A stretch of DNA of 64,000 nucleotides from the NCBI GenBank assembly GCA_948439995.1, contig CAOJNP010000001.1, positions 394 to 64,393 on the forward strand, read 5' to 3'. Position 1 is the stretch's first letter. Every line of letters starts with the position of its first letter. A program made the translations under genes and the position numbers. Below, one piece after another: positions 6,311-60,253 of the stretch. Origin of the DNA: an uncultured Erysipelotrichaceae bacterium. Lineage in GTDB: Bacteria; Bacillota_I; Bacilli_A; RF39; UBA660. The notes below the pieces were generated by a model. That model saw nothing but the letters and a program-made list of their open reading frames with translations, was not told where the DNA came from and ran no database searches.

Positions 6311-6398
6311 ATATTCCCTCTCTTTTAATTGAGTATAAATCAATATGAAAAAAAATTTCAGTTTTTAGTGTTAAGAATGGATATAATTTTATTATTTT

Positions 6399-7613
6399 TT
6401 AATAAAGAATATAAGTAATTTTTGCAAAACCATTTCCTGTGTTTCCTGTCATATTACCAGTTCCATCATGATTTGGCATAGAAAGATTCCCCGATATCAT
6501 TTTGGTATCATGAAATACATATCCAGAGTAATGATTTGGTTGTCCTGTATGAACTATTTTAGAAGAGGTTGAATTTTCTGCTATGGCATTACATCCTGGA
6601 TACCCTGAGATAAAGGAAGAACCTCCTCCACCTCCTGACCATGAACTGCCAGGATGAACTCCATGACCACCACCATAGTAACCTCCTCCACCTCCAGATG
6701 AGGTATAGGTATTATCTTTTATATTTTTTCCATATCCTCCAGCACCAAATGTTCCAGTCATAGAAGCTTGTTTTGGATCATACGTTGATCTCGCAGTTCC
6801 TGGACCGCCTCCAGCAGTTTGACTAGCTCCATAACCACTATAATTGGTATTGTTATAAAGGTTATCATAGGTAACTGCTATTTTACTATTAATTCCAGTT
6901 AGTCCTCCACCATCACCTCTAGTTACTACTGAAGTATTTGTTTTGAAAGAACCGCCGCCTCCTCCTGCTGCAACCATAATTCTGGATTTTAAAGATTCAA
7001 AATTATTCCAATTACCATTAACTAAACGAACATCAGTTGCACCACCACCAAATGCTTCGCCAGGTCCACTGCCATTAAATTGAATCCAATTCGAAGTTCC
7101 AACATAAAAGTATAAATGTGTATCTTTTATTAAATTAATATAACCTCTAACATAAGCTCCTCTTCCAAATGAATTTTGTAAAATTTTTCCATCTGATCTT
7201 ACATGACCAGATGCACCCCATAGTTCTAACAGATAAAGTCCATCATAAGGTACAATAAATTCTTGCTCGCTTGCTACATGATTAAAGCTATATACAATCT
7301 TTCCATCTACTAAACTTGAATTTTTTCGAAATAAAACATTACATTTTGTTCTCGTTTTGGTTAAGTTTTGAATTATAGGTGCCCAATCTTCATAATTCCA
7401 AGTTCCAGTCGCATCATTATTACAAGTTATATCTATAATATAATCTTTTTCTTCTGGAATTGTTTCACTGATTTTTCTATTACCATTTTCATCTTCCGTT
7501 TGAAATGTCAGCATTAAATCATAGTTTTGATTCGGAATTTGACCTTTAATTATGTCAAATTCTAGTTTTTCTTCAAAAAAGGCAAAGCTTCGATATACAA
7601 TGATCATTGCCAA
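6399..7613 (-). CDS. Glycine-rich domain protein
   Basis: Multiple poly-Gly tracts (GGGGGS, GGGGGYYGGGHG) and LELWGASG motif reminiscent of glycine-rich (ALK-like GR) domains; no clear signal peptide. Confidence 0.4.
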   Translation of the reverse strand: MAMIIVYRSFAFFEEKLEFDIIKGQIPNQNYDLMLTFQTEDENGNRKISETIPEEKDYIIDITCNNDATGTWNYEDWAPIIQNLTKTRTKCNVLFRKNSSLVDGKIVYSFNHVASEQEFIVPYDGLYLLELWGASGHVRSDGKILQNSFGRGAYVRGYINLIKDTHLYFYVGTSNWIQFNGSGPGEAFGGGATDVRLVNGNWNNFESLKSRIMVAAGGGGGSFKTNTSVVTRGDGGGLTGINSKIAVTYDNLYNNTNYSGYGASQTAGGGPGTARSTYDPKQASMTGTFGAGGYGKNIKDNTYTSSGGGGGYYGGGHGVHPGSSWSGGGGGSSFISGYPGCNAIAENSTSSKIVHTGQPNHYSGYVFHDTKMISGNLSMPNHDGTGNMTGNTGNGFAKITYILY

Positions 7614-7817
7614 AAATAAACAAGTATTATACTTCCTATCAAGAATACTTTCTTTTTTTTATTATCCTGTTTCCATTTCTCTAATTTCATAAGATTACCT
7701 CTTAATTATTATGATCTAGATTGTTATAAAATATTTACTTACTAGATTTCATTAGAATTATAACACACATTTCTTTTCTTTTTCTATTTTTTTCTTTTTA
7801 TTTCTAAGTTTTAGAAC

Positions 7818-7842
7818 ATTAAAAAAGAGCATTTTGCTCTTA
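7818..7842 (-). terminator. Rho-independent terminator of spo0A
   Basis: AAGAGC/GCTCTT stem overlapping the spo0A stop codon, followed on the minus strand by TTTTTT. Confidence 0.5.
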
Positions 7843-8610
7843 TGACATAATTAAATTTTGATCTATTCTTAATCGATCTGCTAATGTTGCAATAAATTCT
7901 GAATTTGTAGGTTTGGCACGATCATAATCAACACTATGACCGAATATTTCTTCCATTAACTCGTAGTCTCCTCTAGACCAACTAACTTCGATTGCATGTC
8001 GAATCGCTCTTTCAACACGAGATGCAGTTGTATCAAAACGCATTGCTATTTCAGGATAAATCTCTTTTGTAATTCCGCCGATCATTTCTTTTGAAGTATA
8101 CATCATATAAATGCTTTCTCTTATATATTGATAGCCTTTAATATGAGATGGTACACCAAGTGAATGCAATAATTTGCTAATTGCCATTTGAATATTATTT
8201 TCTTCTTTAGCATTTGCTTCTTTTGTTTCTTCTAAATTGACAACTTCTAAAATGCGTTTTTCTAACGATTCTAAACTAAACGGTTTTAACATGTAATAAT
8301 CTACATTATATTTACTAGCCATTTTAACAGAGTATTCTTTTTTAATGCTTGATAATATAATTACATGTTTATCAATATTTTGATTTTTCATTTCTTCTAG
8401 AATTTCAATTCCGTCTTTTTCTGAAATTAATAAATCCATTAAAATTAAATCATAATCATTTTGATGGTCTTTGATTTGCTCTAACGCTAATTTTCCATCT
8501 GTTGCTTCATATGCAAGGTCTATTACTGCGTGTTCCTTGAAATATTCTTTTACTTTTCTTATTAGATTTGCGTTATCATCTACCATAAGAACTTTAATAT
8601 TTGTTTTCAT
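7840..8610 (-). CDS. spo0A: Sporulation master response regulator Spo0A
   Basis: REC domain plus characteristic Spo0A C-terminal domain (HIKGYQYIRESI, TTASRVERAIRHAIEVSWSRG, KPTNSEFIATLADRLR); start at ATG 8610 preceded by AAGGAGA. Confidence 0.9.
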   Translation of the reverse strand: MKTNIKVLMVDDNANLIRKVKEYFKEHAVIDLAYEATDGKLALEQIKDHQNDYDLILMDLLISEKDGIEILEEMKNQNIDKHVIILSSIKKEYSVKMASKYNVDYYMLKPFSLESLEKRILEVVNLEETKEANAKEENNIQMAISKLLHSLGVPSHIKGYQYIRESIYMMYTSKEMIGGITKEIYPEIAMRFDTTASRVERAIRHAIEVSWSRGDYELMEEIFGHSVDYDRAKPTNSEFIATLADRLRIDQNLIMS

Positions 8611-8701
8611 ACCTGTCTCCTTCATTGTATTATTTACTGCACGCAAATTCATTATATAAAACCTGTAGACAAAATACTAGAATATTTTTTGACTCATTAC
8701 G

Positions 8702-9436
8702 TCAACTTTTGTAAATGCTTGTCGAACTTTGAAACATTTCTAAAACTTTACACATTTTTTCAACATTGAGAGACAATTTTCCCAACAAAAAACCATCAAT
8801 TTCTGCTAAATTTTTTATGTCTTCTGGAGTTACACCTCCTCCATATAAAACTAAATTATTTAAGAAATTATGTTCGTAATACCATTGTTTGATTCTTTCA
8901 ATAATAGGTAAAATTTCTTCTATTTTAAGAGGTATATTTTTTCCTACTCTCCAAATCGGTTCATAAGCAATGATAATATTTTTCTTTTTATTTTCTGGTA
9001 TATCTTTTAATAAATAATCTAATTTATCTAGGATAACTTCTTCTGTCTTTCCTAATTGATATTCCATTAAGTTCTCACCAATTGGAATTATTACTTTTAA
9101 ATCTTGTTTTAGAGCATTTTGAATTTTCTTTTTTAGAATTTCTTCATTTTCTAAAAAATAAATTTCTCTTTCATGATGTCCAACAATGATATATTCTACT
9201 CCTAAGCTTTTTAAACACTCAGCACTTACTTCGCCTGTAAAGCTTCCTCTTTCTTCTTCACTCACATTTTGTGCACCAAGTATATATTTTTTAGAATACA
9301 TAATTGGAATATAGGGAAATTGAGGACATATTACCAAATTGGCTTTTTCCTGAATATAGTTTTCCATCGTTTTTTTATATCGAAGCATTTCATTTAACGT
9401 TCCATTTTCTTTTAAGTTACAAATCAAGAGTTTCAA
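8702..9436 (-). CDS. tpiA: Triosephosphate isomerase
   Basis: TIM family similarity (IIVGHHERE, AYEPIWRVG, YGGGV motifs); overlaps pgk end. Confidence 0.85.
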   Translation of the reverse strand: MKLLICNLKENGTLNEMLRYKKTMENYIQEKANLVICPQFPYIPIMYSKKYILGAQNVSEEERGSFTGEVSAECLKSLGVEYIIVGHHEREIYFLENEEILKKKIQNALKQDLKVIIPIGENLMEYQLGKTEEVILDKLDYLLKDIPENKKKNIIIAYEPIWRVGKNIPLKIEEILPIIERIKQWYYEHNFLNNLVLYGGGVTPEDIKNLAEIDGFLLGKLSLNVEKMCKVLEMFQSSTSIYKS

Positions 9437-11919: not shown

Positions 11920-13554
11920 CTAACCAATAAATTCTCTTAAGATGGAATCATCTTTTACGTATTCACTACTAATAGGATAAAATCCTTTTAAAGAATTAAG
12001 TAATCGTCTTGCTTCTTCATAATATGGTGAATTCATGTTGACAGAATATAAAAGAGGTTCTGCATATATTTTTAACACTCCTAATTCATAGGATAAAGCA
12101 GTGTTAATAATTACATCTGCTTGATGTACATATGGGAATATATATTTTTCTTCACCCATTCTTACGACTTGCCATTCTTGAATTGTTTGATCGACTTTTC
12201 TTCCACGAGTACGATTGTCTCTTACGATTCTTCGAATCAAACGCATATCAAGTGTGGATATGTAATTATGTCGATCAATATTTAGTGGAATAAAAGGACT
12301 TAAGTAAATCTTAAATTTTGACTCTGCTTCAATAAAGGGAACTAAATCATCATTTAAACAATGAAGTCCTTCTATTAAGACAATACTATTGTGTTTTAGT
12401 TTTACTTTATGATGATTGTATTCTTTTTTTCCTGCTACAAAATTATATTCTGGAAGTTCTCTTTCTTCTCCATTTAAAAGCCCAGTTAATGTTTCATTAA
12501 ATAGTTTTAAATCAATGGCTTCTAAACATTCAAAATCAAATTCTCCATCTTCATTTTTTGGTGTATCTTTTTTATCTACAAAAAAATCGTCTGTTGATAT
12601 GGAAATCGCATCAAATCCTTTGGCCATGAGATAAGTGGCTAATCTTTTTGTAGTAGTTGTTTTTCCTGAGGAAGATGGTCCTGCAATTAATATAAATTTT
12701 ACATCTCTTCTTGAGACAATTTCATTCGCTACTTCTAATATGCTTTCATTAAAAACAAGTTCATTGGCTTCCATAAATTTTTGAATTTGATTATGACTAA
12801 TCCAATCATTCATATCAGCTAGATAAGGAACATTCATTTTTTTTAACCATTTTTTTCCCAACATAAAATTATCTATAATATTATCGTAATGAACATAATC
12901 TGGAACTTCTCCAGTTCTTATATTTGGACATACTAAGATAATTCGATTTTTCCCAATATAAACCAAATCATATTTTTTAATACATCCAGTACTATAAGGC
13001 ATAAAATTATAATAATAATTTAAGTGATCTCTTAATTTATAAAGTGTTACAACTTCATTACTAATATTTTGAATGTTTTTGGCTTTTTCTTCTTCTCCAT
13101 TGGCTGAAAAATAAAGATAAGCATCTTTTTTGATTAAATGATAAGATAGAATTCTTTCATTCGAAGATATGATTTCGGCCATTTTTCCTTTTATTTGTTT
13201 TACTTCTTCATTCGTAAAATTTTCTGGAGTTACTACTTCACTTAATATTCCTTTTGGCACACTATGGAGAAAATTAATTTCACTTTTTGGAAATAATTCT
13301 TTAACAGCTACTTCAAATATGAATTTTAAAGCCGATTGATACATTTTATAACCTGCTAAGTCGGTTACATCAAAAAAATCAATTTTCATATCACTATTAG
13401 CTTTTTGATCTAATGAATATATTTCATTATTAATTTTGACACCTAAAATATCGTGTTTTTTTCTTTTTATATCTTTACTGATCTCATAAAAAGTGGTCCC
13501 TGTTGGATATTTTTTACTTTTTTCATTTGTAAATGTTATTGTAATTTCACTCAT
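11920..13554 (-). CDS. TGS-domain (ThrRS N-terminal-like) uridine-kinase-family fusion protein
   Basis: ThrRS-like N-terminal TGS region (ITITF...GTTFYEIS) followed by P-loop kinase IAGPSSSGKTTT and uridine/PRK kinase-like C-terminal region; lies 9 bp upstream of gap. Confidence 0.6.
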   Translation of the reverse strand: MSEITITFTNEKSKKYPTGTTFYEISKDIKRKKHDILGVKINNEIYSLDQKANSDMKIDFFDVTDLAGYKMYQSALKFIFEVAVKELFPKSEINFLHSVPKGILSEVVTPENFTNEEVKQIKGKMAEIISSNERILSYHLIKKDAYLYFSANGEEEKAKNIQNISNEVVTLYKLRDHLNYYYNFMPYSTGCIKKYDLVYIGKNRIILVCPNIRTGEVPDYVHYDNIIDNFMLGKKWLKKMNVPYLADMNDWISHNQIQKFMEANELVFNESILEVANEIVSRRDVKFILIAGPSSSGKTTTTKRLATYLMAKGFDAISISTDDFFVDKKDTPKNEDGEFDFECLEAIDLKLFNETLTGLLNGEERELPEYNFVAGKKEYNHHKVKLKHNSIVLIEGLHCLNDDLVPFIEAESKFKIYLSPFIPLNIDRHNYISTLDMRLIRRIVRDNRTRGRKVDQTIQEWQVVRMGEEKYIFPYVHQADVIINTALSYELGVLKIYAEPLLYSVNMNSPYYEEARRLLNSLKGFYPISSEYVKDDSILREFIG

Positions 13555-44055: not shown

Positions 44056-47000
44056 TTATTTTTTGTTAATAATTATTGCAATGATAGCTCCTAAAGCTAT
44101 AACAATTCCTGTGATAACATACCAGATTAAAGTGTTTGACTCTTTTGGTATTTCTTCTTGAACTTTTTCATCTTGTTTTTCTATTTCATTTTTATAATCT
44201 ATTAGTAATTTTCCAAAAGATTTCAATTCCAATTCAATTTGATTTGGACTTAAAGCTTTATAATCTAAATTTTCATAAGCATTTCCACGATTAATCAGAT
44301 ATATTCCTTCTAAATCTTTCTTATTATTCAGATTAATAATTAATTTAATCTTTTCTGATGAAATATTAATTTCTTTTTCTTTGGAATCTTCTAAATATAA
44401 TTCGAAATACTCTGAATCTTCTCCAAATTTTTGTTTTAAAGTTTTTGTAAGCTCAAAATCTTCTTTTTTTAGTACAAAATTAGTTAAGTTTTCACTTGTT
44501 AAAATACTTGCTTTAATATTTGAAATAGTAAAGTCAACATATTTTGTTTGATTTTCCTGCTTATTGTAATTTGGTAATGTATAATCTTTTATTACAATTT
44601 GATTATCTACTTTGTTTTCAGGAATAATAATTGGTTTTTCTACTTTCTTTTGAATCCAATTTACGATTGCTTTTGCTGTTCCTTTGTTTCCAGCTTGATC
44701 CATAAATTCAAATGTAAATTCTCCATTTTCTTTAAAAGTATATTTATTTGATCCATTATTATTTAAAATGGTAACATCTGTTTCATCAAATGTAATCATT
44801 GCCATAACATTTTGATCTGTTACTTTTTTGTTATCATAAATAATTGTTGCCGTTGGTGCAATTTTATCAATCCAATCGACGATAGCTTTTATACTTCCTT
44901 TATTTCCAACTTGATCTATATATTCAAATGTAAATTCTCCATTTTCTTTAAAGATCACTGTTTTCAAACCATTATTATTTAATAATTTTACTCCATCTTG
45001 TAATTCTATGGTTGCTATTACATCTTGATTCGTTAATTCTGTTTTATCATAAGTAATAGTCGCAATTGGTTTTTCTTTTTGAATCCAATTTACCATAGCT
45101 TTAGCTGTTCCTTTGTTTCCAGCTTGATCCATATACTCAAATATAAATTCTCCATTTTCTTGGAACGTATAAGTATTTAGTCCTTGATTATTCAAAATTT
45201 CTACATCTTTTTTATCAAAAGTAATCGTTGCAATTACGTCTTCTTTGGTTAATTCTGTTTTATCATAGGTAATGGTTGCATTTGGTATTACTTTATCAAT
45301 CCAATCTACAATAGCTTTTATACTTCCTTTATTTCCAGCTTGATCTATATATTCAAATATAAATTCTCCATTTTCTTGGAATGTATAAGTATTTAGTCCT
45401 TTGTTATTTAGGATTTTTACATTTTCTTTATCAAAACGTATGGTTGCTATTACATTTTGGTTGGTTAATTCTGTTTCATTAAATGAAATGGTTGCATTTG
45501 GTGCTTCTTTATCGATCCAATTTACCATTGCTGTCGCTGTTCCTTTGTTTCCTAATGTATCTTGATATTCAAATGTAAATTCTCCATTTTCTTGGAATGT
45601 ATAAGTATTTAGTCCTTTGTTATTTAAGATTTTTACATTTTCTTTATCAAAACGTATAGTTGCTATTACATCTTGGTTGGTTAATTCTGTTTTATTATAA
45701 GTAATAATAGGAGTTGGAAGTTCTTTATTTATCCAAGTAACTTTTGCTGTAGTTTTGTTTTTATTTCCAGCTTGATCCACATATTCAAATGTGAATTTGC
45801 CATTTTCTTGGAACGTATAAGTATTTAGTCCTTGATTATTTAAGATTTTTACATTTTCTTTATCAAATTGAATACTAACAGTTACATTTTGATTCGTTGG
45901 TTCTTCTATATTATAAGATAAGGTTCCTTCTGGTAATTTTTTATCAATCCAACTTACGATAGCTGTTGCTGTTCCAATATTTCCTAAAACATCTTGGTAT
46001 TCAAATGTAAATTTACCATTTTCTTGGAATGTATAAGAATTAGATCCATTATTATTTAGGATTTTAATTTCTTCCTCAGCATGAATTTCGGCAATTACAT
46101 TTTGATTCGTTAAATTGTTAATACTATAAGTAATAGTTGCAATAGGTGCTTCTTTGTCAATCCAACTTACTGTAGCAGTTGCATATCCTATATTTCCTGC
46201 TAAATCTTTCATTTCAAAAGTAAATTTACCATTTTCTTGGAATGTGTATGTTTTTTTACCTTCATTATTTAATACAATGATTTCTTCACTTGGAATTAAT
46301 TCTACTGTTACATCTTGATTGGTTAAATTTGTTGTACTGAATTTAAATTGCCCTGTAGGTAATACTTTATCAATCCAACTTACCATAGCTTTGGCTGTTC
46401 CTGTATTTCCCGCTAAATCACGATATTCAAATGTAAATTCTCCATTTTCTTGGAATGTATAAATATTTGATCCATTATTATTGGTAATGGTTACATTTTC
46501 TTTATCAAAAGTAATCGTAGCCGTAACGTCTTGGTTTGTTAATTCTGTTTTATCAAATGTAATGGTTGCATTTGGTACTGTTTTATCAATCCAATTTACA
46601 ACTGCTTTGGCTGTTCCAATATTTCCTGCTAAATCTTTAAATTCAAATATAAATTCTCCATTTTCTTGGAATGTATATGTTTTTTTACCTTCATTATTTA
46701 ATACAACGATTTCTTCACTTGGAATTAATTCTACTGTTACATCTTGATTGGTTAAATTTGTTGTATTGTATTTTAATTCTGCCGTAGGGGCTTCTTTATC
46801 AATCCAGTTAACAATGGCAATGGCATATCCTTCGTTTCCGTTCTCATCGATATAGTTGAATATAAATTGCCCATTTTCTTGGAATGTGTATGTGTTATGC
46901 CCATCATTATTTTGAATTGTTACATTTTCTCTATCAAATTCAATTGTTACTGTTACATTTTGATTCGTTATTGTATTGATATCATAGGTAAACGTAGCAT

Positions 47001-50000
47001 TAGCAATATCTTTATTAATCCAATCTACTTTTGCTAAAGTTGTATTTTTATTTCCCGCTAAATCTTGGTATTCAAATATAAATTCATCATTTTCAGTAAA
47101 AGTATAGGTATTTGATCCATTATTATTCAATATAATGATTTCTTCATCGCATTCTAATGTTGCAATGACAGGATCTCTAGTCGTGGAAAGATTACTGTAT
47201 TTTATTTTTGCTACAGGTACTGTTTTATCAATCCAATCTACTTTTGCTGTTGCTGTATTTTTATTTCCCAAATTGTCCTTGAATTCAAATGTAAATTCTC
47301 CATTTTCTTGGAATGTATAAGTATTTAATCCGTTATTATTAGTGATAAATACTTTTTCTTTATCAAATTCGATAGTAACTACAACATCTTGATTGGTTAA
47401 TTCTGTTATGTTGTATTTTAAAATTCCATTTGGTGCTACTTTATCAATCCAACTTACAACTGCTTTGGCTGTTCCTGTATTTCCCGCTAAATCACGATAT
47501 TCAAATGTAAATTCTCCATTTTCTTGGAATGTATAAATATTTGATCCATTATTATTCAATATAATGATTTCTTCATTTGCTATTAATTCTACTGTAACAT
47601 TTTTATTTGTCGTTTGTTTTGTACTATACATTAATTCTATTGTTGGAGCTTCTTTATCAATCCAACTTACAATTGCTTTTGCACTTCCTGTATTTCCTGC
47701 TGCATCACGATATTCAAACGTGAATTCACCATTTTCTTGAAACGTATAAGTATTTGAAATATTATTCGTAATAATAATATTTTTATCTGAAATAAGCGTT
47801 GCAATTACATTTTGATTCGTTTTTTCCGTAATGTTATATTCAATTCTAACATTTGGTGCTACTTTATCAATCCAATTTACAACTGCTTTTGCACTTCCTG
47901 TATTTCCTGCTGCATCACGATATTCAAATGTAAATTCGCCATTTTCTTGGAATGTATAAGTATTTAATCCGTTATTATTTAATACTTTAACATTGGATTT
48001 ATCAAATGAAATGGTTGCTGTTACGTCTTGATTGGTTAACTCTGTTTTATTGTAAGTAATGGTAGCATTTGGTGCCACTTTATCGATCCAATCAACATGA
48101 GCAGTAGTACTTCCTACATTTCCTGCTTCATCTGTAAAATCAAATGTAAATTCTCCATTTTCTTGAAATGTATAAGTATTTAATCCATTATTATTTAGAA
48201 TCCTTACATTTTCTTCATCAAATTCAACTGTAACTACGACATCTTGATTGGTTGGTTCCATTGTACTGTATTCTACGGTAGCATTTGGTGCTACTTTATC
48301 AATCCAACTTACGATAGCTGTTGCTGTTCCAATATTTCCTGCTGCATCCATAAATTCAAATGTAAATTCGCCATTTTCTGCAAAAGTATAAGTTAATGGA
48401 TCTTTATTTGGATCTGATAAATCAAGTGTTCCATTATTTAAGACTGTAACTGCTTCGTTTGGTATTAGTCTAGCAATAACATCTCGATTTATTTTATTGG
48501 TTGTACTATATTCAATGGTAGCTGTTGGTGCTTCTTTATCAATCCAATTTACAACTGCGGTTGAGCTTCCTGTATGTCCATAATCATCTACAAATTCAAA
48601 TGTGAATTCGCCATTTTCTTTGAAAATATAAGTATCACTACCACCATTATTTGTAATCGTTATATTGGTACTAGGATTAATTAATCTTGCAATAACATCT
48701 TGATTCGTAATTTCAGTTTTATCATATCCAACACCTGCTGTAGGATGTGGATTAATTGTTAAATCTTGAAAAATATTAAATGCTCTTGCCATAAACCAAT
48801 TTCCATTACTTGCACGATCCGCTACAATTTTAATATATTGTACTTCTTTTGGATGTTCTATTTCAAAACTTTTTGTATTTTCAATTGCTTCTTCATTGGT
48901 ATTTGCTTGATTCGTATATCTTAAATTTTTTGCAGTATATAATACTTCCCAATTTTCACCATCCATACTTCCATAAACGGTTCCATCTAATATTTTTCCA
49001 TTTCCACCGCCACCTGGAACATATTCTACAGCTGAAACATATCTTGGTTTATCTAATTTAATAGTAATAAATCTTTCAGTGTCTGACCCATTCCATGCAC
49101 TATGCCAATTGGTATTATAATTTCCATCAATGGCATTGGTTGCATATCTTTTTTGCGCTGAAGCTTCGGATGAAAACGATTCAATACTTAAATGGGAAAT
49201 GGATACATATTTTCTTGTGTCTGGTTGATTATCTGGAGTAAACGTATAACTTAATACATCACTTGGTAAATTGGTTCCTGTTGCTCCTATTCTTACTTGT
49301 AAGCTAGCATTTCCACTATTATCTGGGGAAGATATCGCATAAGAAGTCCATGAATCGTTTTCACTTTTTCTCCATTCATAAGTCGTATTAATTCCAATGA
49401 CACGATTTTCTAAATCGTTTCCAAATAAGTGAGTAGGTGTTGCTGCTTTTGTGATATCAATATTATAAATATTTTCTTCACTATAATTGACTCCAACAAT
49501 GTGGATTTTTATATCATTTTCAGCTGTAATACTTTCTAGTTCTTCTTCAATTAATTGTAATTTATGTTCTTCTTCTGCTGTAAATGACACTTCTTTCCAA
49601 TTATTACCACCATCTAAACTATAATCCCATCTTACTCCATTATTATCGAATCTACTTGATAAAACAATTTTTCCTGCATTGTCACCATCAAATGAGAAAG
49701 TAGCAATCGTTTTATCTATTTTTCCTAATAAATAATTTGCCTCTAATCTTGTTAAGGATGGTTGATAAACATAATAATCGTCTGCTGTATTATTTGGAAC
49801 TTTTGATCCTTCTGTTAAAATTCTTGTTTGCAATAAAGTGAATTTGTAACTATTTTCAATTGATGTTAATTTTGGCTTAATTAAATTTGTTAAATGATAC
49901 ATTGGTAATGGAAAATATTTCATTTCTTCTGCAAGTTCTTTTGCTAATTCATAATAGTCATCTTCTGTTTTATTTTCATTCGCATTATAAGTGGTTATTA

Positions 50001-51897
50001 AACCATACCAAGCATTGATATTAAGTGGTTGAATTTCTAATGCTTCACGATAAATTCTTTCTCTTTTTTCTAAATCACTTTGATATACATCTGCTAAAAT
50101 TACTTTCTTTTGACTTTCTTCAAATATTTCAAAATTGTTTAATACTTCTTGAGCTAAAGCCATATAAACAACAGAATATCCTCTTTGATAAGTTTCATTT
50201 CCCCATCCAAGTAACATTCTTTCGCCTTTTTCAGAAAGTGTCCATCCACTTACATCGTTATCTAGATTCCAATATCCTCTACCTAAATCATCTTGTGTAT
50301 AATATATAATCGCAGCATGTCCTGGTTGACCAATTACTGCAGCTGGTATTCCATGAGTTGCACGAATGTTTGAACCAGATTTTGAGATACCACCACAAAC
50401 GGCTCCAGTTCCAAATTTATTTCGAAAATTCATCCACACTTTGTATACTTTTTTATCCATGGTTCCACGAGTGATTCCATAATCATATAATTTTTTTTCT
50501 TTTACTGAAAATAAATCATTAAAATAGTCATAATTTTCTTCATCATAATAAACTGGATTTCCATAATTAGGCCATACATATGCGATATACGAGTGTGGTG
50601 TTAATAATCCCCATGCACTTTTTGGATTTTGGTCTATCTTATTTTGTACATATTCATTCAACCATACAATAGATTCATCATCAATTAGATTATTCATTAC
50701 AAATCGCATTTCTTCAATGTTATAATTTTCAAACCATTTGGTAATATCTATGGTATCTGTTACTTTTAGTTTTCCATTTTTATGTAAGTCTTTATAAATT
50801 TCGTATCTTTTTACAGCATCAGATTGATTTTCTGCTGCACTTGGTTGCATCCATAAAGCAACTTGTGCTGAGTGAGTTAAAGATAAAGTTATGGCCATTC
50901 TTTTATATAAATCACCATATTTATTACCATATTTAGTTAATTCTTGAATTTCAAAATCAATTTTATGAGCTTTTAATAATCTTTTTAAAACCTCAAAAGA
51001 ATTATAATAACTTCCAGTGGGTTTTCCACCCATGGTATATAATCTTAAATTTTCTAAATCATTAAATAACCATTCAAAAGTTTCTTTATTTTCTTGTCCT
51101 TCTCCTATAAACTTCTTAATTGCATATGTACCTACATTTTTAATTAAATTTCTTTGCAATATTGTCAATTCTTGTTCTTTATTATTAAAATCAATTTCTC
51201 CAAACGACTTAATTTTTTCATCATATTTTTCTAAATCAATTTGATCGAAAGAAGCGCCATATTCTGCTTTAATTAATTTTGCATCAGCATATACAGAGTG
51301 GTCTTGTCCATTTCCTTTATTGTCATAAGCTTCTAATTTCAAAAAGTTTTTATCTTTAATATCTATTTTAACCATATCGGCATTTTCTTTAGGTAATTTT
51401 ACAAATTCTTCTTGAAGATCCCAAGTTTCACCATCCATCGAAGTATAAATTCTAAAAGTAACACCGTTTCCTGCTGTAGAAGTAGTATTTAATCCTAAAA
51501 GTCCTGTAAAATAATCGTAATCATAATCGCTAATATCATATACTAATACTGAACTTGCATGAGCCCACATTCCTTTATCATAACTATATACTGAGCCTTC
51601 TACTTTTACAGATATTTTAGTATTATTACTTGTTTTATCTTTTAATATACTTCCCCAACTAGTTGATGATTGATTTTCTATATAATCAATATCAGAAAGA
51701 TAAATAAAATCTGTATTATTTACTTCATTATTATTTAAATTTAAAATATTTGATACTTCATTAATTTCTTGTTTCATATTTTGATAATACCTTGGTAATG
51801 TAATTACCATAATTAATAAGCATATAATTCCGATCAAATATATTTTATAATTATTTCTTGCTATGTATTTTTTCACGCCAAAAATCCCTCTTTTCAA
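44056..51897 (-). CDS. Giant (2613 aa) cell-surface protein with NPCBM-like, transglutaminase-like core, F5/8 type C and ~20 Ig-like repeats
   Basis: N-terminal signal/anchor; NPCBM-like (IYLSDIDY...VYADAKL); C-H-D pattern GAVCGG...HGIPAAVIGQPGHAAIIYY...GYWNLDND like transglutaminase-like cysteine proteases; discoidin-like domain (NWHSAWNGSDTERF). It has about 20 tandem ~80-aa repeats (TYTFQENGEFTFE...VNWIDKxAP) and a C-terminal TM. Start may be GTG at 51876 after AAGAGGGA. Confidence 0.8.
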   Translation of the reverse strand: MKRGIFGVKKYIARNNYKIYLIGIICLLIMVITLPRYYQNMKQEINEVSNILNLNNNEVNNTDFIYLSDIDYIENQSSTSWGSILKDKTSNNTKISVKVEGSVYSYDKGMWAHASSVLVYDISDYDYDYFTGLLGLNTTSTAGNGVTFRIYTSMDGETWDLQEEFVKLPKENADMVKIDIKDKNFLKLEAYDNKGNGQDHSVYADAKLIKAEYGASFDQIDLEKYDEKIKSFGEIDFNNKEQELTILQRNLIKNVGTYAIKKFIGEGQENKETFEWLFNDLENLRLYTMGGKPTGSYYNSFEVLKRLLKAHKIDFEIQELTKYGNKYGDLYKRMAITLSLTHSAQVALWMQPSAAENQSDAVKRYEIYKDLHKNGKLKVTDTIDITKWFENYNIEEMRFVMNNLIDDESIVWLNEYVQNKIDQNPKSAWGLLTPHSYIAYVWPNYGNPVYYDEENYDYFNDLFSVKEKKLYDYGITRGTMDKKVYKVWMNFRNKFGTGAVCGGISKSGSNIRATHGIPAAVIGQPGHAAIIYYTQDDLGRGYWNLDNDVSGWTLSEKGERMLLGWGNETYQRGYSVVYMALAQEVLNNFEIFEESQKKVILADVYQSDLEKRERIYREALEIQPLNINAWYGLITTYNANENKTEDDYYELAKELAEEMKYFPLPMYHLTNLIKPKLTSIENSYKFTLLQTRILTEGSKVPNNTADDYYVYQPSLTRLEANYLLGKIDKTIATFSFDGDNAGKIVLSSRFDNNGVRWDYSLDGGNNWKEVSFTAEEEHKLQLIEEELESITAENDIKIHIVGVNYSEENIYNIDITKAATPTHLFGNDLENRVIGINTTYEWRKSENDSWTSYAISSPDNSGNASLQVRIGATGTNLPSDVLSYTFTPDNQPDTRKYVSISHLSIESFSSEASAQKRYATNAIDGNYNTNWHSAWNGSDTERFITIKLDKPRYVSAVEYVPGGGGNGKILDGTVYGSMDGENWEVLYTAKNLRYTNQANTNEEAIENTKSFEIEHPKEVQYIKIVADRASNGNWFMARAFNIFQDLTINPHPTAGVGYDKTEITNQDVIARLINPSTNITITNNGGSDTYIFKENGEFTFEFVDDYGHTGSSTAVVNWIDKEAPTATIEYSTTNKINRDVIARLIPNEAVTVLNNGTLDLSDPNKDPLTYTFAENGEFTFEFMDAAGNIGTATAIVSWIDKVAPNATVEYSTMEPTNQDVVVTVEFDEENVRILNNNGLNTYTFQENGEFTFDFTDEAGNVGSTTAHVDWIDKVAPNATITYNKTELTNQDVTATISFDKSNVKVLNNNGLNTYTFQENGEFTFEYRDAAGNTGSAKAVVNWIDKVAPNVRIEYNITEKTNQNVIATLISDKNIIITNNISNTYTFQENGEFTFEYRDAAGNTGSAKAIVSWIDKEAPTIELMYSTKQTTNKNVTVELIANEEIIILNNNGSNIYTFQENGEFTFEYRDLAGNTGTAKAVVSWIDKVAPNGILKYNITELTNQDVVVTIEFDKEKVFITNNNGLNTYTFQENGEFTFEFKDNLGNKNTATAKVDWIDKTVPVAKIKYSNLSTTRDPVIATLECDEEIIILNNNGSNTYTFTENDEFIFEYQDLAGNKNTTLAKVDWINKDIANATFTYDINTITNQNVTVTIEFDRENVTIQNNDGHNTYTFQENGQFIFNYIDENGNEGYAIAIVNWIDKEAPTAELKYNTTNLTNQDVTVELIPSEEIVVLNNEGKKTYTFQENGEFIFEFKDLAGNIGTAKAVVNWIDKTVPNATITFDKTELTNQDVTATITFDKENVTITNNNGSNIYTFQENGEFTFEYRDLAGNTGTAKAMVSWIDKVLPTGQFKFSTTNLTNQDVTVELIPSEEIIVLNNEGKKTYTFQENGKFTFEMKDLAGNIGYATATVSWIDKEAPIATITYSINNLTNQNVIAEIHAEEEIKILNNNGSNSYTFQENGKFTFEYQDVLGNIGTATAIVSWIDKKLPEGTLSYNIEEPTNQNVTVSIQFDKENVKILNNQGLNTYTFQENGKFTFEYVDQAGNKNKTTAKVTWINKELPTPIITYNKTELTNQDVIATIRFDKENVKILNNKGLNTYTFQENGEFTFEYQDTLGNKGTATAMVNWIDKEAPNATISFNETELTNQNVIATIRFDKENVKILNNKGLNTYTFQENGEFIFEYIDQAGNKGSIKAIVDWIDKVIPNATITYDKTELTKEDVIATITFDKKDVEILNNQGLNTYTFQENGEFIFEYMDQAGNKGTAKAMVNWIQKEKPIATITYDKTELTNQDVIATIELQDGVKLLNNNGLKTVIFKENGEFTFEYIDQVGNKGSIKAIVDWIDKIAPTATIIYDNKKVTDQNVMAMITFDETDVTILNNNGSNKYTFKENGEFTFEFMDQAGNKGTAKAIVNWIQKKVEKPIIIPENKVDNQIVIKDYTLPNYNKQENQTKYVDFTISNIKASILTSENLTNFVLKKEDFELTKTLKQKFGEDSEYFELYLEDSKEKEINISSEKIKLIINLNNKKDLEGIYLINRGNAYENLDYKALSPNQIELELKSFGKLLIDYKNEIEKQDEKVQEEIPKESNTLIWYVITGIVIALGAIIAIIINKK
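44650..48750 (-). repeat. Intragenic tandem array of ~240-bp near-identical repeats encoding Ig-like modules
   Basis: Long stretches recur nearly verbatim, e.g. aatccaacttacaactgctttggctgttcctgtatttcccgctaaatcacgatattcaaatgtaaattctccattttcttggaatgtataa at about 46370 and 47450. Confidence 0.8.
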
Positions 51898-55932: not shown

Positions 55933-55985
55933 TTTATCACCTTCCTTATTATTATAATAACAAAAATTTCATAAAAAAACTACTG

Positions 55986-56204
55986 TTATTCCACAGTAGT
56001 CATTTCCACTTCTGTAACGTCTACGGCTTGTAGGCCTTTTGAAGTTTCAATTAATTTAAAATCTACGAATTCGCCTTCTTTTAAAGTTTTATATCCTTCT
56101 TTTACAATAGCTGAATAATGTACAAAGATGTCTTCTAAATTATCATATTCAATAAATCCATATCCTTTAACATTATTGAACCATTTCACTTTACTGCGCA
56201 ACAT
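55986..56204 (-). CDS. Cold-shock protein CspA family
   Basis: KVKWFNNVKGYGFI RNP-1 motif; start at ATG 56204 after AAGGAGAGG; ORF-track start was GTG inside the RBS. Confidence 0.8.
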   Translation of the reverse strand: MLRSKVKWFNNVKGYGFIEYDNLEDIFVHYSAIVKEGYKTLKEGEFVDFKLIETSKGLQAVDVTEVEMTTVE

Positions 56205-56520
56205 TAACACCTCTCCTTCTTACTCTTATTTACTGCTGATACTACCTTACCATGAATTTTTTATTTCTGACAACAGGAATCAGTCGACATTTTTTTCTAA
56301 TATCCATATAAACTCATGACCTATTCAATATATAATAAAAATTTTTTAGTTTTTTATACTTTGTTCCAAATATGCGAAAATATGTCTCAAATTTTATTTT
56401 GGAAATATTTTTTGGATCAAAAAGCTATTTCATTTTTATATTTTTATTCTTAAGACAAAAACTAATCAAAATTTAATAATTTCCATTATAATGCATGTGG
56501 GTTAAGGAAAGGTTATATAA

Positions 56521-57135
56521 ATGAAAAGAAATTTTATTGAAAAATGCTATCAATTTATTTCAAAGTATCAAACTTGTGATGAATTGCAAGCAAAAAAAAT
56601 AAAATATGGTTTAGAAGGTATTTATAACGTATTAACGAAAGTAATTGTTATGGCAATTATTACTATAATATTAGGAATTTGGAAAAGTTATATTTTGTTA
56701 ATCATATTTTATGCTTTAGCAAGAAGGTATGCTTATGGACTTCATTCAAAAAGTTCTATTACTTGTTGGATTTTAACTCTTACCATTTATATTTTTGGAA
56801 GTTATTTTATCCATTATGCTCATCTTCAAAACTATATAATATATTTTATATGGTGCTTTAGTTTTCTTTCTTTCTTATTATGGGCTCCTGCCGATACCCC
56901 AAAGAGACCTTTGATTCATAAAGAAAAAAGAAGAATACAAAAAATAAAATCTTGTATCATATGTTTGATATATTTAGGACTTATTTTTTTATTTCAAAAT
57001 TGCTTTATCAACAATGCTATTATTTATAGCTTATTTGTACAATCTTTATGTATTAATCCTCTACTTTATAAAATCACGAATACACCTTTTGATAATTATA
57101 AAACATATTGTAAAAATCATGGTTTAAATTTTTAA
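56521..57135 (+). CDS. agrB: Accessory gene regulator B (AgrD-processing membrane peptidase)
   Basis: ARRYAYGLHSKSSITCW aligns to S. aureus AgrB IRRHAHGAHAPSSFWCY (catalytic His and Cys 7 residues apart); WAPADTPKRP vs YAPAATKKKP; 4-6 TM. Confidence 0.8.
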   Translation: MKRNFIEKCYQFISKYQTCDELQAKKIKYGLEGIYNVLTKVIVMAIITIILGIWKSYILLIIFYALARRYAYGLHSKSSITCWILTLTIYIFGSYFIHYAHLQNYIIYFIWCFSFLSFLLWAPADTPKRPLIHKEKRRIQKIKSCIICLIYLGLIFLFQNCFINNAIIYSLFVQSLCINPLLYKITNTPFDNYKTYCKNHGLNF

Positions 57136-57173
57136 TATAGATTTAAACAAAAAAGAAAAAAAGGAGGGAATTG

Positions 57174-57291
57174 AATGAACACTTTAGCAAATATTCTATC
57201 TTCTACTGCTACGAATTTAGCTAATACTAGTACTTCAGCTTGTGCAGGTTTCATCTTTGAAGAACCAGTTTGTCCTGAAGAAATTTTATAA
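57174..57291 (+). CDS. agrD: AgrD-like autoinducing peptide precursor, apparently frameshifted
   Basis: RBS AAAGGAGGG then ATG 57174. Frame 0 reads MNTLANILSSTATNLANTSTSALCRFHL and stops at TGA 57258-57260. The +1 frame from 57241 reads CAGFIFEEPVCPEEIL, an AgrD-type C-terminal recognition tail. Deleting one T in the run 57239-57241 fuses them into a 38-aa canonical AgrD. Confidence 0.5.
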
Positions 57292-57292
57292 T

Positions 57293-57328
57293 AAAAAAAA
57301 GAGATCAAGGCCATATGATCTTTTTTTA
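57293..57328. terminator. Bidirectional terminator between convergent agrD and agrC
   Basis: A-run, AGATCA/TGATCT stem with 7-nt loop (AGGCCAT), then T-run overlapping the agrC stop. Confidence 0.45.
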
Positions 57329-58588
57329 ATCTAATTTTTTATTAATAATAATTTCATTAATGAATAAATCATTTATGATAGAAGTCTTTACTTTCACTTT
57401 TTTCCTGCCAATGATAGAAAATAATCCTATTCCATGACCTGATTTTTTAGTTGTATATTTCATAGTACCTAATTTATCGATGTCTAATAATTCTGAAAAT
57501 GTATTAATAATTTTAATTCGATAAGAATTTTCTGTTTCTCTCATATCTATCATAATAATTTTATCTTTTGTTTTTAAAGTAGCTTGTAAAGCATTATCTA
57601 AAAGTACACCTAAAGCTTCACACAAAAGATTATAACGTCTAGGAGATAAATGATCAAATACATTAGTTTCAATTATATTGTCTACTCCTAATTTTAAATT
57701 TGGTTCATTACAATCATAAATTTTTTCATATACAATTCTACTAATACCAATTGGGAGTTTTTGCATTTTATGGGAACATTTATTATTTTCATTATAAGAT
57801 TTTATTAAATCTTCAATTAATTGAATTGATTTTTTATTTGAAACACTTTTTATGCCATTTAACTGATGAATTATGTTATGTTTTAAAATATGATAATCAT
57901 CTACTATAGTTATATAAAATTCATTACTTTTTATTAAATGGTCATTAGTTTCTTTTAATGAATAGTTATTATATTCACAATTAATGTATATAATTATCAA
58001 GATCAAAACTGAAATCAATAAAACATAAAGACTAATATTTGAATTAACGATATTTTTTTCTACAACACTAAAATATAATGCGTATCCTAAAGAACATAAA
58101 ATGGTAATTAAAAGTATTAAGCGAAAATAAGGAAATTTTACTCGTGATATTTTTTTATATAAAGATTTAAACCAACGATGTAATTTTTTATTTCTTAATA
58201 TAAAAATTAAAATAATATCTAAGAAAATAGTGTATATTGATCGAATCATAAGTAAAGATAAATATGGAATAAATTTGGAACAAATCATTGCAAGAATATC
58301 AATAATTAATCCAAAGCTCCATAACACAATGCCATAATAAGTTGTTTCTTTTCGATTTCTACGATAGATCAAAAAATATAGTATAAAGTAAAAGCAGAAT
58401 GATGTAATTGTATTTAAAGTATCTAAATGATAATAATTTTCAAATGTCATAATTATTGCAAAAAATGGTATACAAAGTGCATATAGTTTATAAATTTTTG
58501 TTTTATGATCTGTTATTAATTTAAAACCATAAGTTAACGTACTTAATATTGAACAACTAGCAAAATAATAAAAAATATGATCAATCAT
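57326..58588 (-). CDS. agrC: AgrC-like membrane histidine kinase (HPK10 family)
   Basis: 6-7 N-terminal TM helices, H-box HNIIHQLNG, GHKL ATPase with GHGIGL; overlaps agrA by 8 nt. Confidence 0.75.
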   Translation of the reverse strand: MIDHIFYYFASCSILSTLTYGFKLITDHKTKIYKLYALCIPFFAIIMTFENYYHLDTLNTITSFCFYFILYFLIYRRNRKETTYYGIVLWSFGLIIDILAMICSKFIPYLSLLMIRSIYTIFLDIILIFILRNKKLHRWFKSLYKKISRVKFPYFRLILLITILCSLGYALYFSVVEKNIVNSNISLYVLLISVLILIIIYINCEYNNYSLKETNDHLIKSNEFYITIVDDYHILKHNIIHQLNGIKSVSNKKSIQLIEDLIKSYNENNKCSHKMQKLPIGISRIVYEKIYDCNEPNLKLGVDNIIETNVFDHLSPRRYNLLCEALGVLLDNALQATLKTKDKIIMIDMRETENSYRIKIINTFSELLDIDKLGTMKYTTKKSGHGIGLFSIIGRKKVKVKTSIINDLFINEIIINKKLD

Positions 58589-59294
58589 TTATTTCTACCT
58601 CCTTTTTGTATTTCTTTGATAAGTATTCTACTTTTTCACCACTATCTAAAATATAAAAGCCTTTCGTCCAATTCCATTGATGTACTCTTTGACGATTCGT
58701 AATACAACTTCTATGAGTTTGAATAAATCTATTATCTAACAATTCGGTTACATCACTTAAATTCATATTTAATTTAAATGTATTTTTATCTGTATGAATT
58801 ATAATTTTTCTTTCTTCTTTATCTCTTGTAATATAGGTAATGGCACGATAATAAATTTGTAGATCCACATTACGATTTGTTACTTTAAACATTTTATTAT
58901 CAAACTTTCTTTGAAAAATCAATTCTATATTTTCTTCTAGTCTTTTTTCCATATCATGAAATTTTTCAATGAAGTTAAAAACTTTTAAGACATCTCGATG
59001 AACTGTTTCAAACATTTTATCATGACAAGTTATAAATATAATTTCACTTTCCCAATCTTCTTTTCTAACTAGCTTAGCAATTTCGATTCCACTCATTTTC
59101 GTTTCTAATTCTATATCCATAATATATACTTTTCTGACAGAATTATCTTCTATTATATTTTTTAGTTCTTTATTAAACTTGGTAAAATATTTTACTTTTA
59201 TATTCTTATCTTTTTTTATCACAGTTCTTCTTAAAACTTCTTTAATTAATTCTTGTGTTTTAGTATCGTCTTCCACTACTACAAAGCTAATCAT
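58581..59294 (-). CDS. agrA: AgrA-like LytTR-family response regulator
   Basis: REC domain (YIMDIELETKMSGIEIAKLVRKEDWESEIIFITCH resembles AgrA YFLDIQLSTDINGIKLGSEIRKHD...IIFVTSH) plus C-terminal LytTR DNA-binding domain. Confidence 0.8.
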   Translation of the reverse strand: MISFVVVEDDTKTQELIKEVLRRTVIKKDKNIKVKYFTKFNKELKNIIEDNSVRKVYIMDIELETKMSGIEIAKLVRKEDWESEIIFITCHDKMFETVHRDVLKVFNFIEKFHDMEKRLEENIELIFQRKFDNKMFKVTNRNVDLQIYYRAITYITRDKEERKIIIHTDKNTFKLNMNLSDVTELLDNRFIQTHRSCITNRQRVHQWNWTKGFYILDSGEKVEYLSKKYKKEVEIND

Positions 59295-59378
59295 TTTATC
59301 ATTCCCTTTCTTTTATTCTTTGTTTACCATTTGCAATTATATCTTAGAAATTAGAACTAATCAATAAAAAAGCACAAT

Positions 59379-60005
59379 TTATATCAAATTGTGTCGGATT
59401 ATATGAGATAATAAATAATACTTAGGATTTTCAAAATATAATACAATTTTATTAGTTTGACTTTCGATTTTTTTACAATACTGATTTATTTCACTACTGT
59501 TTCCAAATAGAAATATTTTTTTTATGTTTTTATTCATATCTAAAAACATTTTTAACTGTTCTATGAAATTAATTCCTAAATAATTATCTTGTAATAATTT
59601 AGTTTCTTTTTGATGCTTTGTTAAATATGTTAAATATGCATATTCTTGATTTAAATTTAACCACAATACATTTTTTTTCAAATTATAGCAACTGGTTTCT
59701 TTGATAAATTTCATTTTATGTAGAGATAAATTATCAAATATGATTTTCCATATTTCTTTATCTATTTCATTAAAGTTTGGAGGAATGATAATATATAAAT
59801 TATTTTTTTGAAACTTTTTCAGAATTTGATATTTTTTTAAAAATAAACGAAATTCACGTAAAAATTTTGGGTAATTTATTATTTTTCCATGTTCTACTAC
59901 TTTTTTTGGTAATATGTATTCAAAAAATTGCTCTGTTTTTTTTTGATAAAATTCTATTTTATTATCTGCTATGTATAAATAATTATCATTTTGCATTCTT
60001 ATCAC
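59379..60005 (-). CDS. Hypothetical protein
   Basis: 208-aa ORF overlapping spoIIID stop by 4 nt, occupying the position where mbl/mreB follows spoIIID in many Firmicutes; no recognisable motif. Confidence 0.3.
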   Translation of the reverse strand: MIRMQNDNYLYIADNKIEFYQKKTEQFFEYILPKKVVEHGKIINYPKFLREFRLFLKKYQILKKFQKNNLYIIIPPNFNEIDKEIWKIIFDNLSLHKMKFIKETSCYNLKKNVLWLNLNQEYAYLTYLTKHQKETKLLQDNYLGINFIEQLKMFLDMNKNIKKIFLFGNSSEINQYCKKIESQTNKIVLYFENPKYYLLSHIIRHNLI

Positions 60006-60253
60006 ACTCGTTTTAAGTTTTGGTATTTTTGCTTTGTTTTTTCTCCACCTTTAATATGTTTTTCTTTTTGATGTTTTGTAAAGATTGATTCAATTTGCTT
60101 CCATTTTATTAGATCAATCTTTTTTAATCTTATTTTTAAATCTTGATAAATTGAACTTTTACTTCTTTGAAAAAGAAGTGAAGCACTTCTTATTGTTTCA
60201 TTTTTTTTTATAATAAAATCTGCTTCTTTTAATATATCTTCTTTTTTTAACAT
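60002..60253 (-). CDS. spoIIID: Sporulation transcriptional regulator SpoIIID
   Basis: IRSASLLFQRSKSSIYQDLKIRL HTH and HQKEKHIKGGEKTKQKYQN aligning to B. subtilis SpoIIID VRVIAKEFGVSKSTVHKDLTERL and HKSIRHLRGGEATKLKYKK. Confidence 0.8.
   Translation of the reverse strand: MLKKEDILKEADFIIKKNETIRSASLLFQRSKSSIYQDLKIRLKKIDLIKWKQIESIFTKHQKEKHIKGGEKTKQKYQNLKRV

Follow-up and report, generated by a model that had tools for sequence, protein, structure and literature searches.

The locus considered here raises the question of whether a group of agr-type genes beside sporulation genes and a cold-shock gene (csp) forms a working quorum-sensing system and, if so, what such a system might control. It lies in a 64,000-nucleotide stretch of contig CAOJNP010000001.1 from an uncultured Erysipelotrichaceae bacterium; the whole of this stretch is called the window below. 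The open reading frame (ORF) map of the window places the four agr ORFs where a preliminary description of the same DNA had put them (Table 1), and its claim of a complete agr set is borne out by profile matches to AgrB, AgrD, HATPase_c_5 and Response_reg plus LytTR. We regard it as quite probable that these genes make up a working, vertically inherited agr-type system of a spore-forming gut lineage, acting by the mechanism proposed below and including an output through csp. More tentative, and held with rather less than even confidence, is the further proposal that csp, which encodes an RNA chaperone, is the direct and highest-affinity output in the place and role of RNAIII, that the repeats driving it switched sides in some sister lineages, and that some relatives hint at threonine lactones. 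The agr assignment itself is sound, and the remaining interest lies in the predicted divergent csp output driven by LytTR-type repeats (boxes) and in several side observations in relatives.

Table 1. Genes and predicted regulatory features of the agr locus (window coordinates)
Feature	Position	Strand	Details
csp	55986..56204	-	72-aa cold-shock-domain protein, monocistronic; ORF with ribosome-binding site and ATG at 56204
Predicted csp core promoter	56313..56332	-	-10 TATATT (56327-56332), 7 nt, TCATGAG (56313-56319)
Strong LytTR-type direct-repeat pair	56361..56392	-	ATTTGAGACAT-N10-ATTTGGAACAA on the minus strand; 21-bp period; toward csp
Weaker box pair	56427..56458	+	toward agrB, whose -10 follows after exactly 28 nt
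Predicted agrBD promoter, -10 TATAAT	56487..56492	+	34 nt upstream of the agrB ATG
agrB	56521..57135	+	204-aa polytopic membrane peptidase, AgrD processing; PF04647
agrD	57175..57291	+	38-aa autoinducer precursor MNTLANILSSTATNLANTSTSACAGFIFEEPVCPEEIL; predicted ring start C23; TIGR04223
Predicted bidirectional intrinsic terminator of agrBD and agrAC	57296..57327	both	A-tract/hairpin/T-tract; overlaps the agrC stop codon
agrC-like sensor histidine kinase	57326..58588	-	420 aa; PF14501
agrA-like response regulator	58581..59294	-	237 aa; first gene of its operon; PF00072 and PF04397
Predicted agrAC promoter	59336..59364	-	TTGATT-17-TATAAT; no LytTR boxes
Predicted terminator after orf208	59366..59393	-	hairpin at 59373-59393 with a T-run; adjoins the orf208 stop

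The agr gene set and its two operons

AgrB matches PF04647 at 110.1 bits (gathering cut-off 23) and has the hydrophobic segments of a polytopic protein. G73, H75 and C82 are invariant among 15 orthologues, R68 is kept in 14 of the 15 and W83 in all or nearly all of them. H75 and C82 stand 7 residues apart, as expected of the catalytic pair, which is numbered H77/C84 in S. aureus AgrB. The PDB sequence search with AgrB returned no match. For AgrD, the match is to TIGR04223 (26.1 bits, cut-off 19), and the staphylococcal-type Pfam model PF05931 matched nothing in the window. The precursor is laid out as C23-AGFI-FEEP, and every locus has an orthologue in which four variable residues separate the cyclisation residue from a fixed [FW][DE]EP. 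Its product would be a thiolactone of five residues (CAGFI, predicted [M+H]+ 492.2275) or six (CAGFIF, 639.2959); with an N-terminal tail the predicted values would be 650.2966 for SA-CAGFI and 751.3443 for TSA-CAGFI. Known autoinducing-peptide rings have mostly five residues, and that of C. acetobutylicum has six (PMC4916163).

Several relatives carry threonine in place of cysteine at the cyclisation position, six residues before [DE]EP (L024-L026, 7659-7772; L039, 5296-5412; L040, 5294-5410; L041, 5357-5467), one example being MLEFLANLLSGAATASTATPYTLWLVWDEPECPEELI from a very common human-gut species; the AgrD of L008 (11325-11441) has serine there. The literature that we found mentions only Cys or Ser at this position; threonine-lactone autoinducers are possible in the relatives that bear Thr.

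The kinase matches PF14501 (HATPase_c_5, GHKL) at 45.8 bits against a cut-off of 22. A hydrophobic sensor of about residues 1-205 is followed by H237, the N-box residue N332 and the G-box residues G386 and G388, all four invariant among orthologues, and the best PDB matches are S. aureus AgrC structures (4BXI, 6E52). The regulator joins a Response_reg domain (PF00072) to a LytTR domain (PF04397). Among solved structures its receiver domain comes closest to 4MLD/4ML3, a chain of 143 aa that bears only the name 'Response regulator' and that we take to be the receiver domain of ComE; in the alignment the mutated phospho-acceptor of this chain falls on the invariant D60.

The likeness to ComE is a point in favor of the possibility that the kinase and regulator come from another LytTR system, of the competence type or of the bacteriocin type that the preliminary description had raised, and do not serve as receptor for the AgrD peptide. 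A second such point, which weighs against our own assignment as well, is that the best NCBIfam matches, AgrC for the kinase and AgrA for the regulator, do not reach their equivalog cut-offs (NF046015, 26.5 against 500; NF046049, 53.2 against 400). Scores so far below the cut-offs mark the two proteins as family members that are only distantly related to AgrC and AgrA of staphylococci and are not their equivalogs. Several observations nevertheless make an origin from another LytTR system very improbable. The kinase has S. aureus AgrC as its best solved relative, and the kinase-regulator pair adjoins agrD in every one of the roughly 25 lineage loci examined and agrB in all complete loci except one. 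Within 6 kb on either side there are no bacteriocin, immunity or C39-ABC exporter genes and no gene for a linear double-glycine pheromone, as Blp, Com or Pln systems would have; the signal genes present are agrB and agrD. The sensor domain of the kinase and the core of AgrD are both hypervariable while AgrA is conserved: mean column identity in the orthologue alignments falls from 0.82 in SecA and 0.61 in AgrA to about 0.5 in the kinase domain of AgrC and about 0.24 in its sensor. As read from these alignments, a variable sensor and ring core beside a conserved AgrA is the pattern of divergence typical of agr specificity.

The set of loci compared comprises 17 genome loci, one very common human-gut species (AgrB P0167, present in 486 collection blocks) and six further loci. 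The synteny comparison that the preliminary description had suggested gave the same order in nearly all of them: rpiB-spoIID-spoIIQ-(spoIIID)-(orf208)-agrA-agrC> <agrD-agrB, then csp-hpf-secA. This shared order argues that the agr locus is old and vertically inherited; one locus with conserved synteny has a kinase only 24% identical. The exact kinase was found on 14 metagenome contigs with an identical gene order and, judged by sequence, the locus is no assembly artefact. In all complete loci examined csp adjoins agrB, the exception being L007, where agrB is absent, no csp match was found and neither gene follows agrD. L007 has instead a tandem pair of agrD genes (2113-2229 and 2281-2397) with the ring cores CLGFI and CIGLV, followed by a 743-aa ORF in place of agrB. 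Homologues of the kinase come solely from uncultured metagenome-assembled genomes (MAGs) of mouse, rabbit and human (Hadza) guts, and the lineage is low in GC (about 26%). Most of these MAGs are labelled "Bacilli bacterium" and not as Clostridia, with which the locus had been compared earlier.

On the minus strand agrA precedes agrC and the two genes overlap by 8 nt, which makes this operon agrA-agrC. The preliminary description had placed the pair correctly, downstream of spoIID-spoIIQ-spoIIID and a further ORF in the same orientation, and had given the gene order as agrCA, which does not hold. Together with agrB-agrD on the plus strand, the locus consists of two convergent operons. Their convergence on a shared bidirectional terminator, also proposed earlier, withstood comparison with relatives. 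Within the 34 nt that separate agrD from agrC is a hairpin of -10.9 kcal/mol on the plus strand (z = -3.4), weaker on the minus strand, and a hairpin stands at this junction in nearly all related loci. In the distant loci L015, L016, L018, L019, L038, L041 and L042 the junction hairpins are unrelated in sequence. A hairpin that is kept despite different sequences points to a selected structure, which supports a shared bidirectional terminator.

Predicted control regions in the csp-agrB spacer

The spacer between csp and agrB measures 316 bp. It had been thought to contain no convincing LytTR repeats, only short repeats such as AATATG; the latter prove to be fragments of LytTR boxes in the wrong register. 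A direct repeat of 21-bp period emerged from an alignment of these spacers and is present in 16 of the 18 loci with a complete spacer. In the window, pairs of direct repeats of about 9 bp, 12 bp apart and upstream of promoters, were found at two predicted sites, 56361-56392 and, more weakly, 56427-56458. The first of these (TTGTTCCAAAT-N10-ATGTCTCAAAT in its plus-strand form) is the sole exact match to the lineage pattern in the 64 kb, where 0.05 would be expected, and at 22.9 bits it is the sole pair there that scores above 12 bits with a matrix from which the sites of the window had been left out. Each of the pattern-matching loci has one match, always within the agrB-csp spacer. Matches with one mismatch at 36207 and 54210 are at chance level (2.0 expected) and were dropped. 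On the opposite strand the two boxes, ATTTGAGAC and ATTTGGAAC, resemble the AgrA site ACAGTTAAG and the ComE site ACAnTTCAG.

The direction in which the strong pair acts was assigned from its distance to a -10 element. In the csp-ward orientation, a TAnnnT begins 29 nt past the pair in 14 of 16 loci and 30 nt past it in the other two, and the 28 bases between pair and -10 have an identity of 0.37, which is the background level. This geometry, used as a prediction, held in five of the six loci that were fetched afterwards. An initial reading of the repeats as WNGTYYNAAAY toward agrB was rejected, since in that direction no -10 offset is common to more than four of the 16 loci. In the window and 12 relatives the box-linked promoter points at csp and not at agrB. 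Published LytTR promoters share such a geometry: the critical G residues of the C. difficile RgaR repeats lie at -51 and -72 (PMC10602386), the pln repeats (9 bp plus 12 bp) lie directly upstream of the -35 (PMC2714321), and those of AgrA directly adjoin P2 and P3 on the upstream side (PMC4227749). The predicted arrangement in the window agrees with these.

The predicted csp promoter has neither a TG extension nor a -35, and TCATGAG is taken as the 5' end of its transcript. A consensus fold joins the conserved TCRTGAG block to a UUCAUGA farther downstream; with 11 pairs and no double compensations, the fold is weak evidence. The identical csp gene in L001 matches PF00313 (CSD), and a terminator-like hairpin follows csp at 55978-56001. 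No Rfam family reached its gathering score anywhere in the window, neither an RNAIII-like nor a known csp-leader family. The predicted csp leader of the window and of most related loci has a conserved TTTGTCGAA motif, at a distance of about 30-45 nt from the predicted start; in the window it reads TGTCGAC on the minus strand (56283-56289). Some 33 nt farther downstream comes a second possible csp -10 (TGGTAAGGT). The motif resembles the Spo0A-box consensus, TGTCGAA, and may mark a second, sporulation-linked csp promoter or an operator.

On the agrB side, every locus keeps a -10 at 26-39 nt from the agrB start codon, and in the rabbit-gut clade it reads TGnTATACT. The proximal box of the weaker pair, TCTTAAGACAA, scores 6.7 bits, at about the 99.9th percentile, and the distal box, ATTTCATTTTT, is degenerate at -8 bits. 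In 10 of 16 loci, one or more sites that reach or exceed about the 99th percentile occur at this prescribed place. As signals for autoinduction, agrBD has a good box and a degenerate one, both in the canonical geometry, and agrAC has none. With two back-to-back repeat pairs, one per divergent promoter, the spacer looks like the P2/P3 region of S. aureus. Just downstream of their -10 elements the agrB and agrA promoters are alike (window 56487-56512 and 59315-59341; TATAAT(T)GCAATT.GT..ACAA in relatives), a likeness that could stem from a shared operator or from a 5' leader common to both.

An alternate explanation of the strong repeats is that they act on agrBD, as in classical autoinduction from upstream, and that csp is a mere neighbor. 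AgrA, bound about 110 bp before the start site of agrB, would then act either by bending the DNA or together with the weaker proximal box. In favor of this, the strong pair keeps a distance of 120-133 nt to the agrB ATG, AgrA reportedly bends DNA (PMC4227749), and autoinduction is the norm for agr systems. This explanation is nonetheless unlikely, given the fixed offset found toward csp in all 16 loci and found toward agrB in at most four, and given that agrB already has a separate pair of canonical geometry. The strength of the csp promoters also speaks against it. The weak csp core promoter goes with boxes, whereas in L021, whose strong pair is turned toward agrB, the csp promoter is a strong one (TGCTATAAT). 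If csp depended on an activator, its core promoter would be expected to be weak beside boxes and strong where they are lacking, as is seen.

In L021-L023 the strong pair lies on the agrB side (about 12130-12160), again with a -10 at an offset of 29/30, and these loci have two tandem csp genes. In the human-gut species of L024-L026 the best pair also faces agrB (about 6909-6941 in L024, likewise with a -10 at 29/30) and scores only 6.6 bits. It looks from these sequences as though the box pair had switched between the two divergent promoters during evolution.

The receptor operon and the proposed mechanism

Upstream of agrA on the minus strand lie spoIID, a spoIIQ-like M23 gene, a spoIIID-like gene and orf208, and the preliminary description had suggested that transcription of these sporulation genes could read into the receptor genes. 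Expression of the receptor mainly by such read-through would couple perception to sporulation. It is made conceivable by the common orientation of the sporulation genes and agrA, by an intergenic gap of only 84 nt, and by the weakness of the hairpin after orf208 in the window (-6.4 kcal/mol), which may let some transcription through. We consider it quite improbable, as a conserved terminator and a conserved promoter lie in between. A hairpin with a T-run follows orf208 in most loci examined, L017 showing no clear one, and its sequence differs in distant loci (L015, L021-L023). Just downstream is the agrA promoter, with 10 of 12 consensus matches in the window and a -10 that is conserved 31-47 nt upstream of agrA and extended (TGnTATAAT) in nearly all relatives. 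This promoter stays in loci from which orf208 and spoIIID are absent. With the orf208 terminator and a promoter of its own, agrAC is probably an insulated unit. Box scores at the prescribed position before this promoter are negative in 16 of 17 scorable loci, with a single half-site of 2.7 bits in L011 as the exception. A promoter that is box-less and insulated from the sporulation genes suggests that expression of the receptor is probably constitutive.

The neighboring genes themselves vary. The lineage-specific orf208 (window 59379-60005, minus strand), between spoIIQ/spoIIID and agrA, is absent from L021-L023 and L042, and even a 16-sequence profile found no Pfam or PDB relative for it. The spoIIID-like gene (60002-60253, minus strand) scores 55.9, below the NCBIfam SpoIIID cut-off of 111.5, and occurs at this position only in some loci (window, L011, L037-L040). 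In the rabbit-gut MAG L018 about 3 kb are inserted between orf208 and agrA (5911-8994), with the agrA promoter kept downstream. Farther away, downstream of secA, a 2613-aa ORF (window 44056-51897, minus strand) has a counterpart in L001 with NPCBM and F5/8 type C (discoidin) domains and probably encodes a large secreted glycan-binding or glycosidase protein.

The mechanism that we propose is as follows. AgrB, through H75 and C82, would remove the C-terminal tail of the 38-aa AgrD and cyclise the peptide from C23. After export the peptide would be perceived by AgrC through its fast-evolving membrane domain, and the kinase would then phosphorylate AgrA at D60 by way of H237. Both proteins would be made from a box-less sigma-A-type promoter that a terminator would insulate from the upstream spo genes. 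Phosphorylated AgrA would bind the two back-to-back pairs of 21-bp-spaced repeats in the csp-agrB spacer, activating csp strongly and agrBD more weakly. The strong pair, 28 nt from a weak -10, would drive the divergent, monocistronic csp as the predicted output, and the weaker pair, with the same geometry before agrBD, would give the predicted positive feedback. The shared terminator would stop the convergent operons from reading into each other and producing antisense RNA. By analogy with S. aureus, we infer that csp stands in the place of RNAIII.

Several points weigh against this mechanism. Every promoter, start site and box in it is a prediction. The orientation of the boxes was assigned from the -10 geometry together with a resemblance to ACAGTTAAG and ACAnTTCAG, and the most distant locus, L042, has no clear boxes. 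The poor distal half of the agrB-side pair makes autoinduction uncertain. The second csp promoter (TGGTAAGGT), nearer to the gene at about 40 nt from the ATG, could make the dependence of csp on the boxes partial. Finally, neither the ring size nor the N-terminal tail of the peptide can be derived from the AgrD sequence.

Agr-type systems are widespread in sequence databases, with 40,850 AgrB hits in RefSeq against 43 known autoinducing peptides from six species (PMC12180512), and gut families of such peptides have already been mined (PMC11953309). The present locus is a further, well-defined case, from a spore-forming gut lineage that is uncultured and occurs in mouse, rabbit and human samples, with testable parts in its predicted peptide, its cognate receptor and two predicted AgrA-dependent promoters. 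The box consensus RTTTNRRAC-N12-RTTTNRRAC, followed after 28-30 nt by a -10, can be used for regulon scans of MAGs. If csp is in fact the primary target, it would be an unusual protein-based counterpart of RNAIII, and cell density would be read out through a global RNA-binding protein from a locus wedged between sporulation genes. The switch of the boxes from one side to the other, if real, would be a natural rewiring from an output-first to a feedback-first circuit. Nothing useful on links between agr and csp was found in the literature.

Comparison with known agr systems

The preliminary description had considered the split arrangement notable. To place it, AgrB was compared by tblastn with annotated plasmids and 10 annotated agr loci were inspected. 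These showed at least five layouts: the C. estertheticum plasmid pCEST-001C (NZ_CP087101.1) is convergent, and the other nine loci have at least four further arrangements. Such variety, with a convergent case in C. estertheticum, indicates that plasticity of layout is the rule and that the convergent form is not new. We found no description of a convergent agr layout in the literature; clostridial agrBD and agrCA are described as able to form separate operons (PMC12312760, a 2025 primer). Because it is already present in public annotated genomes, we attach little weight to the convergent layout.

The layout of pCEST-001C is the same as in the window, agrB-agrD facing a converging GHKL kinase and LytTR regulator with the regulator upstream of the kinase. 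Its proteins are the best or near-best matches among the sampled loci, at 35% identity for AgrB (second by score to C. taeniosporum), 30% for the kinase and 29% for the regulator. In contrast to the window, the locus is plasmid-borne and lies beside radical-SAM/SPASM genes, not beside csp or sporulation genes, and its agrD-kinase gap of only 6 nt leaves no room for a shared hairpin. We found no experimental characterisation of this locus in the literature. On C. estertheticum plasmids a gene for a CPBP-family intramembrane protease stands directly beside agrB (L031, 4083-4601; L034, 4056-4574), and no such gene adjoins the agr locus of the window. This neighbor is reminiscent of MroQ, the second protease of autoinducing-peptide maturation in S. 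aureus.

Other spore formers show partial likenesses. The agr genes of C. acetobutylicum are, we assume, colinear, unlike the convergent operons of the window. As in the window, its signal-synthesis and receptor genes are separate transcription units, described as agrBD then agrCA (PMC3754575), and the host is a spore former. The C. difficile agr2 locus, agrACDB, reverses the gene order of S. aureus and is apparently a single transcript (PMC3754575). Closer in its regulation is the RgaS-RgaR/AgrB1D1/SpoZ system of C. difficile, where a LytTR regulator with 21-bp-spaced repeats centered near -50 and -70 drives agrBD and a second regulatory output with a link to sporulation (PMC10602386). There, however, the RgaSR genes lie apart from agrB1D1 and a small RNA serves as second output, whereas here the kinase and regulator genes are adjacent and the predicted second output is csp.

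The AgrD of Listeria monocytogenes resembles that of the window in having a Cys, four hydrophobic residues and an aromatic-Glu-Pro. The product in Listeria is the CFMFV thiolactone (PMC4916163). The window's AgrD differs by an extra acidic residue (F-E-E-P), which would allow a ring of five or six members, and the Listeria genes form a colinear single operon.

With the S. aureus agr system the locus shares the four protein families, the seven-residue spacing of His and Cys in AgrB and the hypervariability of both the AgrD core and the AgrC sensor. It also shares LytTR repeats of 21-bp period, in two back-to-back pairs between divergent promoters, and the predicted csp and agrB start sites are about 180 bp apart, compared with about 188 bp implied by the S. 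aureus probe (PMC4227749). The differences are that S. aureus has one colinear operon, whereas here there are two that converge and the receptor operon opens with the regulator gene and lacks boxes, and that the divergent transcript is RNAIII in S. aureus and the protein-coding csp here.

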